A stretch of DNA of 5,732 nt from Escherichia coli (GCF_030013595.1 NZ_CP122774.1); one strand, 5' to 3'; positions 1 to 5,732 are shown, counted from the stretch's first letter. A program made the numbers and translations. The notes: generated from the sequence alone by a model not told the origin.

Positions 1-495
1 ATGGCGGGCACAGTATGGCGTGACATAAGAACGGGAGAGACTGTTTTTCCTATGGGGCACCTGCACCCTCAGAGGTGCTGTGTTGATGTAAACGGTACTT
101 CTGTAGATATAGAAATTAGTTTTGGTTTTCATGTTTTTACTGATGAAAAACAAACCGGAATGCTGATGAAATTTAAGGAGGAACAGAGGTTTTTTTGTAG
201 GGAACGCTATGAGGGCAGCAAAACTATCGTTCACAGAATACTTACAGCGATAGAAAACGGTGAATACATTACAGCATTTATTTCAAAGGGGCAGGGGCAG
301 CGGTATTACCATCTTAGCCATCATGATGACTTCATTTTGATGGAAATAAGAAAGCCTCAAGATAGAAATAATTCTTTGCGTATTCATGTTGTTACAGCTT
401 ACACGCTTGATGAATGGGGGACTGTAAATAAAGGACGTAACCTGCGGTTTAGATATGTGCTGGAACAGCGACTGCAGGGAAAGAAGATTGTGTAA
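1..495 (+). CDS. Hypothetical protein, 164 aa as drawn; candidate distal gene of a two-gene accessory cassette. Start uncertain (ATG at 1, or internal ATG at 52).
   Basis: Uninterrupted ORF from position 1 to TAA at 493-495. AT-rich relative to the backbone. Followed at once by a strong hairpin terminator. An alternative start at ATG 52 is preceded by GGGAGAG (33-39). No family recognised by eye; the HLSHHDD and RIHVVTAY segments are not diagnostic. Confidence 0.5.
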   Translation: MAGTVWRDIRTGETVFPMGHLHPQRCCVDVNGTSVDIEISFGFHVFTDEKQTGMLMKFKEEQRFFCRERYEGSKTIVHRILTAIENGEYITAFISKGQGQRYYHLSHHDDFILMEIRKPQDRNNSLRIHVVTAYTLDEWGTVNKGRNLRFRYVLEQRLQGKKIV

Positions 496-531
496 AAAAC
501 AAAAAGCGCCTAAGGCGCCTTTGTTTTTTGC
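495..531. terminator. Rho-independent terminator, probably bidirectional
   Basis: GC stem GCGCC (506-510) / GGCGC (514-518) with a TAA loop, flanked by an A-run (495-505) and a T-run (519-530) that are themselves complementary, so the hairpin plus U-tract works on either strand. Confidence 0.75.
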
Positions 532-679
532 AGAATTTCGGTCTGGCCTTTCGTTATCCCGCTCACAGGCTGGGAGGGTGTGACCCCCGGCATCAGCACC
601 CCTCTCTCGAGGTTCCGGTTTGTGCTGACAACATTAGTATCCTATTCCACATGTTCGTTGTCAAACTAGCGTACTTTTT

Positions 680-770
680 GGTGTTCATTGGTGTTTATAG
701 GTTGTCATTTACCCTCTTTGTGGTTATAAGTGTTTATAGGTTTTCATTGTTTTTTATAGGTGTTCATATG
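680..770. repeat. Direct-repeat array: three copies of TTTATAGGT(T/G)NTCAT(T) plus GTTCAT half-motifs, overlapping the promoter and start of the downstream HTH gene
   Basis: tttataggttgtcatt at 694-709, tttataggttttcatt at 733-748, tttataggtgttcat at 754-768; ggtgttcatt at 680-689. Spacing between copies is 39 and 21 bp. Confidence 0.6.
702..730 (+). promoter_or_regulatory. Putative sigma70 promoter (TTGTCA, 17 bp spacer, TATAAG) for the AlpA-like gene
   Basis: -35 TTGTCA at 702-707, 17-nt spacer, -10 TATAAG at 725-730, embedded in the repeat array about 40 bp upstream of ATG 768. Confidence 0.35.
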
Positions 771-1070
771 AAGTTGCTTGATAGTAATGAAGTGTGTGAG
801 CTCTTAGGCATCAGTAAGTCCACTTTGTATCGTTGGTGCGGGGTGTCTGAGGATTTTTCTGGCTTGGGTCTAAGTAGCGGTCTTCCTCAGGCTAACGCTA
901 CTCAGAACTCTTTAGGCAGGGAAAATAGGCTCGTTAGGAGGGAATTACAGCAAAACGCTCTCGGTGTCGAAGAGACGCCAAGCGACTTCCCTCGTCCTTT
1001 CAAGATCGGTCGTTCGTTTAAATGGAAAGACGCCGAAATTATGGCTTGGCTTGAAACGCGACGCGTTTGA
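768..1070 (+). CDS. AlpA/Xis-family-like helix-turn-helix DNA-binding protein (about 100 aa) with an internal insertion
   Basis: N-terminus LLDSNEVCELLGISKSTLYRW and C-terminus FPRPFKIGRSFKWKDAEIMAWLE match the AlpA/excisionase-type HTH pattern (xLSRSTIYR ... FPKPxKLGxRxxxWxxxEIxxWL). The listed ORF begins at 528, but its first 80 codons are translation of the repeat array and the first plausible start is ATG 768. Both start and product are uncertain. Confidence 0.5.
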   Translation: MKLLDSNEVCELLGISKSTLYRWCGVSEDFSGLGLSSGLPQANATQNSLGRENRLVRRELQQNALGVEETPSDFPRPFKIGRSFKWKDAEIMAWLETRRV

Positions 1071-1119: not shown

Positions 1120-1227
1120 TGTAAACGAAAAAACCACCATGGCAGGTGGTTTTTCGAAGGTTATTTAATCCTGGCAGATTGAATAACCGTGGTAACAGCC
1201 TTGTGCGAGACGTGTCACCAAATCTGT
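1120..1227 (-). ncRNA. RNA I antisense copy-number control RNA (about 108 nt, approximate ends)
   Basis: The minus-strand terminator is the complement of gtaaacgaaaaaaccaccatggcaggtggttttt (1121-1154). The 5' end aligns with the conserved ccaaat.ctgtcc block (1218-1230). The minus-strand promoter (-10 complement agtgta at 1234-1239, -35 complement cttcaa at 1258-1263) matches the pMB1 RNA I promoter layout. Loop sequences differ from ColE1/pMB1. Confidence 0.7.
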
Positions 1228-2018: not shown

Positions 2019-2210
2019 TCAGAGGTTTTCACCGTCATCCCCGAAGCGTGCGAGGCAGCTGCGGTAAAGCTCATCGGCGTGGTCGTGAAGCGATTCACAG
2101 ATGTCTGCCTGTTCATCCGCGTCCAGTTCGTTGAGCTTTTCCAGCAGCGTTAATGTCTGGCTTCTGATAAAGCGGGCCATGTTAAGGGCGGTTTTTTCCT
2201 GTTTAGTCAC
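2019..2210 (-). CDS. rop: Rop/Rom, RNA I-RNA II interaction modulator (63 aa)
   Basis: Translation MTKQEKTALNMARFIRSQTLTLLEKLNELDADEQADICESLHDHADELYRSCLARFGDDGENL matches the ColE1/pBR322 Rop sequence as I remember it. Here the start codon is GTG (complement of 2208-2210), with GGAGG 6 nt upstream on the minus strand. Confidence 0.95.
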   Translation of the reverse strand: MTKQEKTALNMARFIRSQTLTLLEKLNELDADEQADICESLHDHADELYRSCLARFGDDGENL

Positions 2211-2250: not shown

Positions 2251-2598
2251 ATGATACCGATGAAACGCGAGAGGATGCTCACGATACGGGTTACTGATGA
2301 TGAACATGCACGGTTACTGGAACGCTGTGAGGGTAAACAGCTGGCGGTATGGATGCGGCGGGTCTGTCTGGGTGAGCCGGTTGCCCGTTCCGGGAAGCTG
2401 CCGACACTGGCACCGCCGTTACTGCGCCAGCTGGCTGCCATCGGGAATAATCTGAATCAGACGGCGAGGAAGGTGAACAGCGGGCAGTGGTCTTCCGGTG
2501 ACCGGGTTCAGGTGGTGGCCGCACTGATGGCCATCGAGAGAGAGTTGCGCAGCTTACGGCAGGTCGTCAGGGAACATGGAGCGCGGGATGATAGTTAA
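2251..2598 (+). CDS. mbeC: Mobilisation protein MbeC (MobC-like relaxosome accessory protein). Alternative in-frame starts at 2260 and 2275 (MLTIRV).
   Basis: Translation ...MLTIRVTDDEHARLLERCEGKQLAVWMRRVCLGEP... is the MobC/MbeC N-terminal pattern; the 5' part is the same sequence retained as a remnant in pBR322. Stop TAA at 2596-2598 overlaps the mbeA start. Confidence 0.88.
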   Translation: MIPMKRERMLTIRVTDDEHARLLERCEGKQLAVWMRRVCLGEPVARSGKLPTLAPPLLRQLAAIGNNLNQTARKVNSGQWSSGDRVQVVAALMAIERELRSLRQVVREHGARDDS

Positions 2599-4330
2599 GT
2601 TTCATGCCAGGGGAAAAGGCGGTGGCAGTGGTCCGGTTGATTACCTGCTGGGAAGGGAGCGTAACCGGGAAGGGGCAACGGTGCTTCAGGGTAATCCGGA
2701 AGAAGTCCGGGAACTCATCGATGCCACGCCATTTGCGAAGAAATACACGTCAGGTGTTCTGTCGTTCGCGGAGAAGGAGCTGCCGCCTGGAGGGCGTGAA
2801 AAAGTGATGGCGAGCTTTGAGCGTGTACTGATGCCCGGTCTCGAGAAAAATCAGTACAGCATCCTGTGGGTGGAGCACCAGGACAAGGGACGGCTTGAGC
2901 TGAATTTTGTCATTCCGAACATGGAGCTACAGACCGGAAAACGCCTCCAGCCGTACTACGACCGGGCAGACAGGCCGAGAATTGATGCCTGGCAGACGCT
3001 GGTTAATCACCATTACGGGCTGCATGACCCCAACGCCCCGGAGAACCGCCGGACGCTGACCCTTCCTGATAACCTGCCGGAAACGAAACAGGCGCTTGCA
3101 GAGAGCGTCACACGCGGGATAGACGCTCTTTATCATGTCGGGGAGATAAAAGGCCGTCAGGATGTGATTCAGGCGCTCACAGAGGCAGGGCTTGAAGTGG
3201 TCAGGGTGACGCGAAGCAGTATCAGCATTGCAGACCCGAACGGTGGGAAGAATATCAGGCTGAAAGGAGCATTTTATGAGCAATCTTTTACAGACGGGCG
3301 CGGAGTTCGAGAAAAAGCTGAAAGAGAGAGCCGAATCTACAGAGACAATGCTGAACGACGAGTTCAGCAAGCTCGAAAAATCTGTAAGCAAGGCTGTGAC
3401 ATCAAACGAGACGAAAATCAAAGACGCTATAGCCCTGTTCACAGCTTCGACAGAGGAATCACTGAAAAAACACCGGGAAGGGGTGAAAGAGGCGATGATG
3501 CAGCACAGGAAGGACGTGTTAAAGCTGGCAGGGAATACGGGCATGATGTTACTGGGGATGGTCCTTTTCCTGTTTACCGTGAGTGGCGGGACGCTCTGGT
3601 ATCTTGGCGGGCGGATACAGGCGAACCTGGAAGAAATCAGGATACAGGAAGAAACATTGCAGAAACTGAACGCGAAGACATGGGGCGTGGAGTTTGTGCA
3701 GGACGGGAGAAGGAAATTTCTGGTCATCCCGCAGGGGAAATCGGCAACGGTGATTCCCTATCAGGAGAAGGACTGGGTACAACTGACGGAGTGACACAGA
3801 GTGACGGAGCTGGAAAGACATTTGCTGAACGCCTTAGAGCAACTGCAACAGGACTATATGCAGCGGCTGAGCGAATGGGAGAGCGCCTTCGTGGAATTGC
3901 AGAAAATGTTTTCGCTTACGCAACGGGACAACGCGATGCTGAACGAGCAGGTCATGCAGTTGAGTCAGCAGGTGCAGCACTTGAGCGAGCGGACAGAACG
4001 CTTGAGCCAGTTATACAGCGAGAACAGGAGATAAGGGACGAACGGCTGATACAGGAGCGCGAACATGAGTTATCCCTGGAGCGTGAGCGCCAGCTGGAAA
4101 TACAGGAACGGACACTGGATGGCATGGTAATCAGAGACAGGCTAAAATGTTGTCAGCGCGTTTCCGGTGCATTTTTTGGGATAATGGTTGGTTCGGGGGC
4201 ACCGGGAACGCGCTTCAGTCAGACCTTGCTGAAAACACAGGAACGCGTTAAAACGCATACGGGCGCGATTCTGGTGTGTCTTTTGTTGCTGTGTTTTGCC
4301 TCTATTGCCAGATCGCGCTCATTCCCCTGA
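2588..4330 (+). CDS. mbeA: Mobilisation relaxase MbeA (ColE1-type). 580 aa from ATG 2588 (the ORF track starts 4 codons earlier at 2576); 3' boundary should be verified.
   Basis: N-terminus MIVKFHARGKGGGSGPVDYLLGRE is the canonical relaxase start. The ORF overlaps the mbeC stop by 11 nt and contains mbeB and mbeD in the +1 frame, as in ColE1. The hydrophobic C-terminal tail (ILVCLLLLCFASIA) is atypical. Confidence 0.85.
   Translation: MIVKFHARGKGGGSGPVDYLLGRERNREGATVLQGNPEEVRELIDATPFAKKYTSGVLSFAEKELPPGGREKVMASFERVLMPGLEKNQYSILWVEHQDKGRLELNFVIPNMELQTGKRLQPYYDRADRPRIDAWQTLVNHHYGLHDPNAPENRRTLTLPDNLPETKQALAESVTRGIDALYHVGEIKGRQDVIQALTEAGLEVVRVTRSSISIADPNGGKNIRLKGAFYEQSFTDGRGVREKAERESRIYRDNAERRVQQARKICKQGCDIKRDENQRRYSPVHSFDRGITEKTPGRGERGDDAAQEGRVKAGREYGHDVTGDGPFPVYREWRDALVSWRADTGEPGRNQDTGRNIAETEREDMGRGVCAGREKEISGHPAGEIGNGDSLSGEGLGTTDGVTQSDGAGKTFAERLRATATGLYAAAERMGERLRGIAENVFAYATGQRDAERAGHAVESAGAALERADRTLEPVIQREQEIRDERLIQEREHELSLERERQLEIQERTLDGMVIRDRLKCCQRVSGAFFGIMVGSGAPGTRFSQTLLKTQERVKTHTGAILVCLLLLCFASIARSRSFP
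3276..3794 (+). CDS. mbeB: Mobilisation protein MbeB (172 aa), nested in the +1 frame of mbeA
   Basis: 172-codon ORF with AGGAG (3265-3269) 6 nt upstream of ATG 3276. Position and length agree with ColE1 mbeB; it has a central hydrophobic segment (MMLLGMVLFLFTVSGGTLWYL). Confidence 0.8.
   Translation: MSNLLQTGAEFEKKLKERAESTETMLNDEFSKLEKSVSKAVTSNETKIKDAIALFTASTEESLKKHREGVKEAMMQHRKDVLKLAGNTGMMLLGMVLFLFTVSGGTLWYLGGRIQANLEEIRIQEETLQKLNAKTWGVEFVQDGRRKFLVIPQGKSATVIPYQEKDWVQLTE
3801..4034 (+). CDS. mbeD: Mobilisation protein MbeD (77 aa), same frame as mbeB, GTG start 6 nt after the mbeB stop
   Basis: GTG at 3801 with GGAG 10 nt upstream. Coiled-coil-like sequence (LEQLQQDYMQRLSEWESAFVELQKMF...). 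Position corresponds to ColE1 mbeD. Confidence 0.7.
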   Translation: MTELERHLLNALEQLQQDYMQRLSEWESAFVELQKMFSLTQRDNAMLNEQVMQLSQQVQHLSERTERLSQLYSENRR

Positions 4331-4577: not shown

Positions 4578-4693
4578 ATTGGTGCTCTGGGATGAAGCGA
4601 AAATAGGCTTTTTTTCGCTATTTTAGCCTGTTCAGGAACGGCAAGAGTAAATATCTGGGAGCATGAAGCTCGTTAACCTGAATGGAGATCCTG

Positions 4694-4858
4694 ATGATGG
4701 ACAAAGATACCACCACCCTAAAACGCACTTTGGCTCATAATCGAGCCTTTAGCGATAATATTAACCGCAGTGGCATAGCCTGGTGCTATAACACTGAGAT
4801 TGTACTCGCTGCTTGTGAGGCGATTGAAGCCGAACTACAACGGCGAGGATGTTTGTAA
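4694..4858 (+). CDS. Small hypothetical protein (54-55 aa: MMDKDTTTLKRTLAHNRAFSDNINRSGIAWCYNTEIVLAACEAIEAELQRRGCL)
   Basis: Not in the ORF track (below its length cutoff). GGAG at 4684-4687 sits 6 nt upstream of tandem ATG ATG (4694-4699). TAA at 4856-4858 is followed within 10 nt by a strong terminator. Confidence 0.4.
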   Translation: MMDKDTTTLKRTLAHNRAFSDNINRSGIAWCYNTEIVLAACEAIEAELQRRGCL

Positions 4859-4865
4859 CAATAAG

Positions 4866-4889
4866 AAAACCCGCATCAGCGGGTTTTTT
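4866..4889 (+). terminator. Rho-independent terminator
   Basis: aaaacccgc-atca-gcgggtttttt: perfect 9-bp stem, 4-nt loop and a T-run. Confidence 0.75.
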
Positions 4890-4960
4890 AGTCTCTGAGA
4901 CGCGCTACCGCTAAATTATTTTTCTCTCTATCCGCCCTGGCTTGCCCCCTACAACCCCAT

Positions 4961-5007
4961 GGAGCACAAGGAGCACAGGGAGAACCATCGAGCACAACGA
5001 GCACCGC
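4961..5007. repeat. Five tandem degenerate 9-bp repeats (G)GAGCACA-type
   Basis: ggagcacaa | ggagcacag | ggagaaccatc | gagcacaac | gagcaccgc, read directly from the sequence, immediately upstream of the AT-rich tract. Confidence 0.6.
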
Positions 5008-5009
5008 CT

Positions 5010-5190
5010 TCCTCTTATAAATCATTATTAATCATATAATTAAACAACTTCATTGTAATATATATTACTTTTTATGTTTTTAAATGTAATGTTTATTGCG
5101 ATTTAGCTTGTTTTTAACTCTATTTTTTCAGATGAGAACAAGCTGCCAGCAATGAATAACTATTTGATTTTATTGGTTTTTTCAATAAAT
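5010..5190 (+). promoter_or_regulatory. AT-rich leader or promoter tract upstream of the terminal gene (exact promoter not mapped)
   Basis: About 180 bp of strongly AT-rich sequence with several TATAAT-like and TTGA-like hexamers (for example ttataaatcattattaatcatataatt and ttgtaatatatattac), contrasting with the GC-rich backbone. Confidence 0.35.
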
Positions 5191-5219
5191 TAGTGTCCAT
5201 AGACAAACGGGAGACGACT

Positions 5220-5732
5220 ATGTCCGCAAGAGCAAGAAAAGCAGGTAAGAGAAATCAGTCAGAACGACGTCAGGATTTGATTGAAAAATTGTGGGAAGAC
5301 GACGAAATCGATACTTGGCATCGACTTGAAAATGATGGGTACTCAACAGTTCCACGTTATTTGCCTTTGATAGGCGATCTCATGGATGGTCTGTCAAAAG
5401 GATCACCATTATCAACAACCTACTTGGCTTTATGGTTCAGGGTTTCTGATGAGGGGTTGATTGAAATAAGAGATAAAGCAGCACTGGCTTTTGAATCAGG
5501 GTTCGCTAGTGAAAGAGGCGTAACTACATGGGCAGGGAGAATGAAAAAGCTAAAAGAACTGGGGTTCATATCCTGTCGTGAAGGCAGCACCGGTGAATTT
5601 CATTACGTGTTAATTGTTCACCCATTAGTTGCAGTCAAAAAGCTGCTTGATGAAGGGATTATCCCTAAAGGAAAGACTTATAACATTTTGTCGGAGCGTG
5701 TAATTGAGGTGGGAGCCTCTTGGGAGGGTTAA
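5220..5732 (+). CDS. Hypothetical winged-helix-like DNA-binding protein (170 aa from ATG 5220; the ORF track starts at GTG 5193). Candidate proximal gene of the two-gene accessory cassette.
   Basis: GGGAG (5208-5212) lies 7 nt upstream of ATG 5220. Basic N-terminus (ARARKAGKRNQSERRQ). The central segment TTYLALWFRVSDEGLIEIRDKAALAFESGFASERGVTTWAGRMKKLKELGFISCREGSTGEFHYVLI has a helix, helix-turn-helix and beta-wing pattern typical of wHTH regulators, Rep proteins or antitoxins. Stop TAA is the last three bases of the window. Confidence 0.6.
   Translation: MSARARKAGKRNQSERRQDLIEKLWEDDEIDTWHRLENDGYSTVPRYLPLIGDLMDGLSKGSPLSTTYLALWFRVSDEGLIEIRDKAALAFESGFASERGVTTWAGRMKKLKELGFISCREGSTGEFHYVLIVHPLVAVKKLLDEGIIPKGKTYNILSERVIEVGASWEG

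Follow-up and report, generated by a model that had tools for sequence, protein, structure and literature searches.

A winged-helix gene family with an upstream GAGCAC array as a candidate regulator of exchangeable toxin and defence genes on mobile elements

A winged-helix (wHTH) regulator or antitoxin-like gene at the head of defence and toxin cargo is an arrangement already known in kind. BrxR is a repressor that binds inverted repeats and is encoded next to diverse defence systems, and about half of its homologues co-localise with such systems (PMC9122601). The gene described here, gene A, lies at the end of a 5732-bp stretch of Escherichia coli plasmid DNA (the window) and resembles the WYL regulators BrxR and CapW (PMC9122601, PMC9122589) in that a wHTH regulator gene heads or adjoins varied defence systems and has repeats upstream of it. 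The systems with which A homologues co-localise are similarly diverse and comprise SPARSA-type SIR2-APAZ/pAgo, PDC-S54, TrlF/Ppl-like, Abi_C, Gabija, HmaB, HEC-03 and PDC-S35. However, BrxR and CapW carry a WYL/WCX domain, whereas A is a single domain of 170 aa with no room for one, and neither A nor 72 members of its family show any sequence or Pfam relation to those proteins. The putative operator of A also differs, consisting of direct hexamers at a 9-bp period far upstream of the gene rather than the inverted repeats described for BrxR (PMC9122601). A search of the accessible literature found no description of the A family or of the GAGCAC array; what is new is this family, the cross-phylum, one-sided 6-bp array at a 9-bp period, and the range of partners.

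DNA-binding antitoxins of type II and IV toxin-antitoxin and Abi systems, such as the wHTH protein AbiEi, and the PanA/DUF4065 proteins are likewise small, encoded first, coupled to a toxin, plasmid-borne and able to exchange partners, PanA/DUF4065 being hyperpromiscuous. Gene A is like them as a small first gene coupled to a toxin-like gene on plasmids, with partners that are exchanged, but it matches none of the family models, changes little when its partner is swapped and also precedes large defence systems. The iteron-binding Rep initiators with winged-helix domains (RepA of pPS10, RepE, pi and the Rep3 family) share with A the placement of a winged-helix gene beside direct repeats and an AT-rich tract; A has one wHTH against their two, its repeats are 6 bp long at a 9-bp spacing, other replicons are present in its hosts, and it also occurs in chromosomes and phages. 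By fold, the closest solved structures are MarR/TrmB-type factors and TubR, with which A has in common a core of H-S-H-H-wing topology, although its N-terminal W-x-R...G-[FY]-[ST]-T-[IV]-P-R segment and its C-terminal helices have no counterpart in them.

Gene A, its product and its family

Gene A occupies positions 5220-5732 of the (+) strand and encodes a winged-helix protein of 170 aa. The open frame extends over 5193-5732(+), and its longest version would begin at a GTG at 5193; the likely start is the ATG at 5220, which is preceded at a distance of five bases by the Shine-Dalgarno sequence GGAGA (5210-5214) and is also the start chosen in RefSeq, where the identical 513-nt CDS is annotated (WP_001276096.1). 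The 170-aa reading frame of the original prediction is therefore borne out. The same prediction had described the product as basic, which it is not, as the pI is 6.3 and 25 lysines and arginines stand against 26 aspartates and glutamates; a lysine/arginine-rich N-terminus does exist in residues 1-17, but the description does not apply to the protein as a whole.

Library searches with A against Pfam, NCBIfam, PADLOC and PDB sequences, both as a single sequence and as a profile, gave no match, and a PHROGs search returned only noise. When 72 family members were compared with Pfam, none had a usable match, and a single member had a marginal one to RepL (E = 0.03). The AlphaFold2 model of A, built on 30 homologues, reached a pLDDT of 86 and a pTM of 0.82. 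It places helices at residues 65-72, 86-92 and 98-114 and strands at 80-82, 117-122 and 125-133, giving a canonical winged-helix topology (H1-S1-H2-H3-S2-S3) across residues 65-133 with N- and C-terminal helices on its flanks, so that the helix/turn/helix/wing pattern read from the primary sequence is reproduced in the model. The top Foldseek matches of this model in the PDB were all wHTH proteins (MarR family, TrmBL2 and TubR), at weak similarity (E about 0.03, TM 0.3-0.36, 8-21% identity). Within the predicted recognition helix (residues 98-114), R99, W104 and R107 are near-invariant across the 72 diverse members, as is an N-terminal W...G..P motif. The structure model and the conserved cis-element described below support the proposal that A is a DNA-binding protein with a winged-helix core, and such binding is predicted for it here.

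A scan of 1.84 billion representatives identified 658 relatives of A at E below 1e-3, of which 392 fell below 1e-10; these are representatives at 50% identity, and the A homologues form 43 clusters at 90% identity. Membership of a conserved family of this extent indicates that the gene is under selection. Matches in AFDB are named "uncharacterized" or "helix-turn-helix", with a few called "replication protein". Beyond plasmids, homologues are present in 100-400-kb chromosomal contigs, adjoining integrases, and in P2-like phages. One homologue (locus L017, 4498-5253) has an N-terminal extension of tandem PVASPA-type repeats before the conserved domain, encoded by 18-nt repeats that contain GAGTCC.

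The control region upstream of A

The 360 nt 5' of A were aligned among five relatives whose A proteins are 60-83% identical, namely three enterobacterial plasmids (one from Erwinia), a 60-kb conjugative Klebsiella plasmid and an Aeromonas MobV plasmid. Conservation among them starts abruptly at a box, GCCCCCTACAACCCCATG, located at 4944-4961(+) in the window, where it forms the 5' edge of an array of five direct hexamers with a period of 9-10 bp (4962-5004(+); GAGCAC at 4962, 4971, 4990 and 4999, and GAGAAC at 4980). In the aligned relatives, four to six direct GAGCAC hexamers follow the box at the same period, and its pattern, GCCCC-N(4-7)-CCCC(A/G)T, recurs in the distant loci L019, L021, L026, L032, L038, L041 and L166. 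The upstream repeats to which the prediction alluded are thus real, but the array at 4962-5004 lies outside the interval of that prediction (5010-5732), which is too narrow at its other end as well, since the functional unit extends over the window junction into gene B (1-495).

The linkage between array and gene extends across phyla. Among 43 loci that were fetched through the A protein alone, 29 have a paired GAGCAC-N(2-5)-GAGCAC within 700 nt 5' of A and on its strand, as part of an array situated 150-700 bp upstream of A with a period of about 9 bp. Elsewhere in the approximately 370 kb of these loci, such pairs occur twice on the (+) strand and never on the (-) strand. Loci that bear the array come from Enterobacterales, Aeromonas, Pasteurella, Burkholderiales, Undibacterium, Desulfofustis and Planctomycetota (a Schlesneria MAG). 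The exact paired repeat is absent from the remaining 14, several of which have the variant hexamers GAGTAC, CAGCAC or GAGGAC. The array was seen again in loci fetched later and independently, including one with six perfect copies (L166), and two Burkholderia P2-like phages have arrays of GAGCAC, GAGTAC and GAGGAC. In a Cronobacter plasmid (L040, A at 3211-3723), the only locus with a paired GAGCAC far from A, the pair is found at 499-513, about 2.7 kb upstream of the gene or, on the circle, 0.8 kb downstream, with a 144-aa ORF beyond it (1413-1847); this arrangement may be a rearranged one.

In the relatives that were compared, the hexamer stays invariant whereas the 3-nt spacers do not, and this is what a site bound by a protein would show, rather than coding sequence. 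Since the hexamer and the recognition helix of A both remain constant, while the spacers vary and the palindromes differ between groups, we infer from these comparisons that the GAGCAC array is the putative binding site of A. A coding reading of the array, as part of a 45-aa ORF at 4888-5025(-), was considered and dropped because the spacers vary at all three positions around the invariant hexamer and the length and frame of the ORF differ between relatives. The array is not diagnostic by itself, as three consecutive GAGCAC-N3 units turned up at more than 120 places when viral contigs were scanned, none of them near an A homologue. In our reading, these are mostly coding 9-nt repeats (e.g., GGA-GCA-CCN, collagen-like).

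Between the array and the gene lies a leader (5010-5192(+)) which, as originally predicted, is AT-rich, with 21% GC compared with 49% for the whole window. The H-NS-silenced promoter originally suggested for this leader is a conjecture; the conserved and specific motifs within it argue against the view that it is merely AT-rich acquired DNA. A perfect 14-bp palindrome, GTAATATATATTAC, is located at 5055-5068, with a second TGTAAT at 5085-5090, and is kept in the gammaproteobacterial plasmid relatives, other palindromes being found in distant groups. Closer to the gene, a block at 5164-5191 is conserved in all five relatives and recognisable in distant loci. Read from the (+) strand, this element is promoter-like, TTGATT (5164-5169)-16 nt-TAAATT (5186-5191), and it would equally fit an IHF consensus, YAANNNNTTGATW, starting at 5157. 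A promoter scan reported no (+) strand site above threshold, the 5164-5191 element scoring below it. A TATAAT at 5035-5040 was also considered as a promoter and dropped, as it is not conserved in the relatives.

A second motif, (G/C)(C/G)YTCCAAA(A/C)C, is present in two or three copies in the long leader just 5' of A in non-enteric groups (L021, L024, L028, L017, L019, L032 and L169/L170) and is absent from the window. It sometimes adjoins GC-rich hairpins and could be an RNA-level control element (e.g., a CCUCC anti-SD) or another binding site.

Plasmid setting and partner genes

The window is a small mobilisable plasmid of ColE1 type, with RNAI at 1125-1226(-) (Rfam), a Rop gene at 2019-2210(-) and MobC/MbeA/MbeB/MbeD-type genes at 2251-4034. 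Plasmids of 5.4-5.8 kb from E. coli, Enterobacter and Klebsiella are 98-99% identical to it across the region of interest, and a close variant was present in 19 of 5426 complete E. coli genomes, plasmid-borne every time. The ends of the window cut this plasmid at the junction of gene A and gene B, its last base being that of the A stop codon and its first that of the B ATG; in NZ_CP116138, the two coding sequences are contiguous (2628-3140, then 3141-3635).

Several further features of these plasmids were observed. A 58-aa ORF at 4682-4858(+) matches PHROG 35409, of unknown function (3e-13), and ends at a strong bidirectional hairpin terminator (4866-4887, AAAACCCGC-ATCA-GCGGGTTTT) that sits just 5' of the conserved control region. 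A small AlpA/HTH_17-like gene at 768-1070(+) is also found in L003-L006, L013, L014 and L015 (3410-3778), recurring in either orientation within 1-2 kb of the 3' side of the A cassette, and a separate HTH protein of 133-148 aa recurs in L007, L014, L018 and L033. Both the A and the B protein of the enterobacterial plasmid recur at 100% identity on a 6.2-kb contig assigned to "Pseudomonas reidholzensis" (L013, NZ_UNOZ01000043.1), which has a gene content of ColE1 type and represents either assembly contamination or a very recent transfer.

Gene B (1-495(+)) encodes a 164-aa protein of the YjaZ family (PF27200) with a pI of 9.0. Its ATG follows directly after the TAA of A across the window junction, and a GGAGG is contained in the 3' end of A. 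All 16 clusters of gene B homologues carry a precomputed PF27200 match; the NCBIfam YjaZ match of B itself is weak (5e-6, far below the cut-off), and a Pfam search with B gave no match in the copy searched. The structure model of B has a RelE/ParE-like core with weak resemblance to RelE/ParE toxins, and B is regarded as a putative toxic effector. In pairs of relatives, the identities of A and B are close to one another (78/79, 83/83 and 60/55%).

Convergent with gene B, and abutting or overlapping its stop codon, is an sraL-like Hfq-binding sRNA (496-629(-)) with a full-length match to Rfam RF01408 (84.7 bits). It takes up the same position in L012 (1958-2092), L014 (3704-3838) and the Aeromonas locus L004 (4383-4534), with RF01408 scores of 64-89 bits, and is thus kept even in Aeromonas, where the proteins are only 55-60% identical. 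Scans of four plasmids whose partner belongs to a family of about 185 aa (below) did not reveal it. The sRNA accompanies the YjaZ-type partner and not A, among loci scanned without L043, which has a different partner (below).

The coupling of A to the gene that follows it is operon-like, with gaps of 23-70 nt to the next same-strand gene in L021, L024, L025 and L032 and an overlap between A and its downstream partner in L036. The identity of that partner changes. In L043, a 60-kb Klebsiella plasmid whose A is 78% identical to that of the window, the partner is a PBECR2 nuclease-fold protein (Pfam, 2.5e-15). PBECR domains are predicted to be metal-independent BECR-fold RNases acting in conflicts between mobile elements and their hosts (PMC5512222). 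In the small ColE1 plasmids L033, L036, L039, L041 and L042, it is a member of an unannotated family of about 185 aa, whose start codon sometimes overlaps the stop codon of A; the A proteins of L036, L041 and L042 are 44-54% identical to that of the window. In L038, whose A is 73% identical to that of L036, the partner is a distant YjaZ-like protein. Partners are therefore swapped between close relatives, as A proteins 78% identical precede either a YjaZ-like or a PBECR2 gene and A proteins 73% identical either a gene of the ~185-aa family or a YjaZ-like one, and a comparison of A across these swaps revealed no region that diverges specifically with the partner.

In Klebsiella, E. coli and Aeromonas, many ColE1 plasmids of 3-5 kb have a member of the ~185-aa family (L036 781-1344, L039 1069-1623, L041 3342-3902, L042 2225-2776 and L033 213-779) immediately after A; the family has no match in Pfam, NCBIfam or PADLOC. 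A GNAT identity suspected by eye found no support in Pfam or NCBIfam.

Distant A homologues stand before recognised defence genes, among them an Abi_C protein followed by PDC-S54 (1.5e-157) in L021 and L024, SIR2-APAZ with a short pAgo (1e-205 and 5e-200) in L032, and a TrlF-family/Ppl-like ATPase (1e-147) in L025. At other loci, Gabija, HmaB with HEC-03B, HEC-03A/B and a TIR PDC-S35 gene are found near A homologues, as are integrases, Tn7-like transposition genes (recognised by eye) and, in two P2-like phages, the accessory region that follows the integrase. An obligate operon partner is not universal, because A is solo, convergent or divergent relative to its neighbours in L007, L015, L168 and L170, with no same-strand partner in L007 and L015.

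The role of A and competing explanations

Taken together, the fold, the cross-phylum link between array and gene, the operon-like layout and the swapping of partners suggest a role for A as a sequence-specific (auto)regulator that acts on the array and forms the conserved control head of a modular toxin or defence cassette, a reading to which we give slightly better than an even chance. A, probably in the form of a cooperative oligomer, would bind the GAGCAC array, which lies about 220-260 bp 5' of the start codon of A, and in the bound state would control transcription of its own operon. Repression is the favoured sign of this control, by analogy with the BrxR repressor and in view of a cargo that is probably harmful. 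From its second gene onwards, the operon would then encode interchangeable effectors of a toxic or anti-phage kind, represented in this plasmid by the YjaZ-family protein B with its RelE-like core, and the effector would be released when A is lost, titrated or inactivated, as upon plasmid loss or phage infection. The earlier suggestion of an autoregulator or antitoxin of the cassette, or of a phage-defence regulator, fits the position of A as a first gene, translationally coupled to and placed before swappable toxin and defence genes, as a predicted role. The distance of about 160-200 bp by which the array lies 5' of the only conserved promoter-like element counts against a simple repressor.

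The same gene order could also reflect a classical antitoxin that neutralises B by binding it, as in a type II or abortive-infection pair, with DNA binding serving conditional autoregulation of an addiction module. The antitoxin-first order with abutting stop and start codons, the pairing of an acidic to neutral A with the basic B, the co-divergence of the two proteins and the carriage of the cassette on small plasmids are all consistent with such a pair, as are the RelE/ParE-like core of the B model and the PBECR2 nuclease and Abi_C proteins among the other partners. However, A proteins that are 73-78% identical have unrelated partners without any partner-specific region of divergence, which favours action on DNA over partner-specific neutralisation. 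Moreover, distant members head multi-gene systems such as SPARSA and TrlF, neither of which is a toxin-antitoxin pair, some members lack a partner altogether, and A matches none of the antitoxin family models in Pfam, NCBIfam and PADLOC. We therefore regard neutralisation of B by A as unlikely, though still the most credible of the alternatives.

Two further explanations assign the array to plasmid maintenance. Short direct repeats upstream of the gene for their own binding protein are typical of ParR/parC, TubR/tubC and pSK1 par, and the array could by this likeness be a centromere-like or plasmid-pairing site with A as its binding protein, in a single-protein maintenance system whose transcriptional effects are a by-product. 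TubR is among the fold matches of A, and ParA/ParG genes lie nearby in Aeromonas plasmids, but only there; no NTPase was consistently adjacent in the neighbourhoods examined, most carriers are high-copy ColE1-type plasmids, and the same module is found in chromosomes and in phage accessory regions, directly before defence genes, so that we consider this improbable. Still less probable, and indeed very doubtful, is the original prediction of a small Rep-type initiator, which would use the array as its iterons and unwind a second origin at the AT-rich tract. Its appeal lies in the likeness to an iteron origin of a wHTH gene preceded by direct repeats and an AT-rich tract, with a site resembling the IHF consensus between array and gene, and in the name "Replication protein" given to some UniProt homologues together with the marginal RepL match already mentioned. 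Iterons typically measure 17-22 bp, and neither the 6-bp units nor a single wHTH in 170 aa conforms to this type; no Rep family model (Rep3, RepA_C, RepL or others) matches A. The carriers have replicons of their own, as RNAI, which marks a ColE1 replicon, occurs in the window as well as in 10 of 12 small carrier plasmids, and others encode Rep3 or RepM. One carrier, the Pasteurella plasmid L035, lacks a recognisable replicon, and an Rfam search of it at a relaxed threshold gave only noise, but its 1.4-kb non-coding backbone is shared at 98.5% identity with a 2.5-kb plasmid without A, and part of that backbone is about 85% identical to a segment of many small Pasteurellaceae plasmids. The copies of A on large chromosomal contigs, beside integrases, and in P2-like phages also speak against an initiator, and the prediction is not upheld. 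A 1206-bp E. coli "plasmid" with an A homologue, considered as a test case for replication, proved to be a linear fragment.

Regulation by A from the array remains our preferred explanation. A broader proposal, which we advance tentatively and at somewhat less than even chance, is that array and A form an undescribed, portable control module found across phyla, in which a new family of regulators for defence and toxin genes, without relation to WYL proteins, would silence interchangeable toxic cargo on mobile elements from a one-sided operator of 6-bp units at a 9-bp period, the effect being exerted over the distance of a long conserved leader. Few regulator families are known to silence defence or toxic cargo on such elements, and A, with 658 representatives at 50% identity and no entry in the domain libraries, would add a widespread one. 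The cis-element is unusually clear from Enterobacterales to Planctomycetota, which makes the DNA-binding hypothesis directly testable.

If the proposal is correct, the combination of array and A would be a genomic flag for new defence or toxin genes and would offer a guilt-by-association handle on unannotated partners. Candidates flagged in this way are the YjaZ family, including yjaZ of E. coli K-12, the ~185-aa family and a 169-aa protein in L018. For the YjaZ family, and with it the uncharacterised K-12 gene, a RelE-like fold in a toxin-like context would provide a functional lead. A recurrent "hypothetical" two-gene block on the small ColE1-type plasmids of clinical Enterobacterales would thereby be explained.
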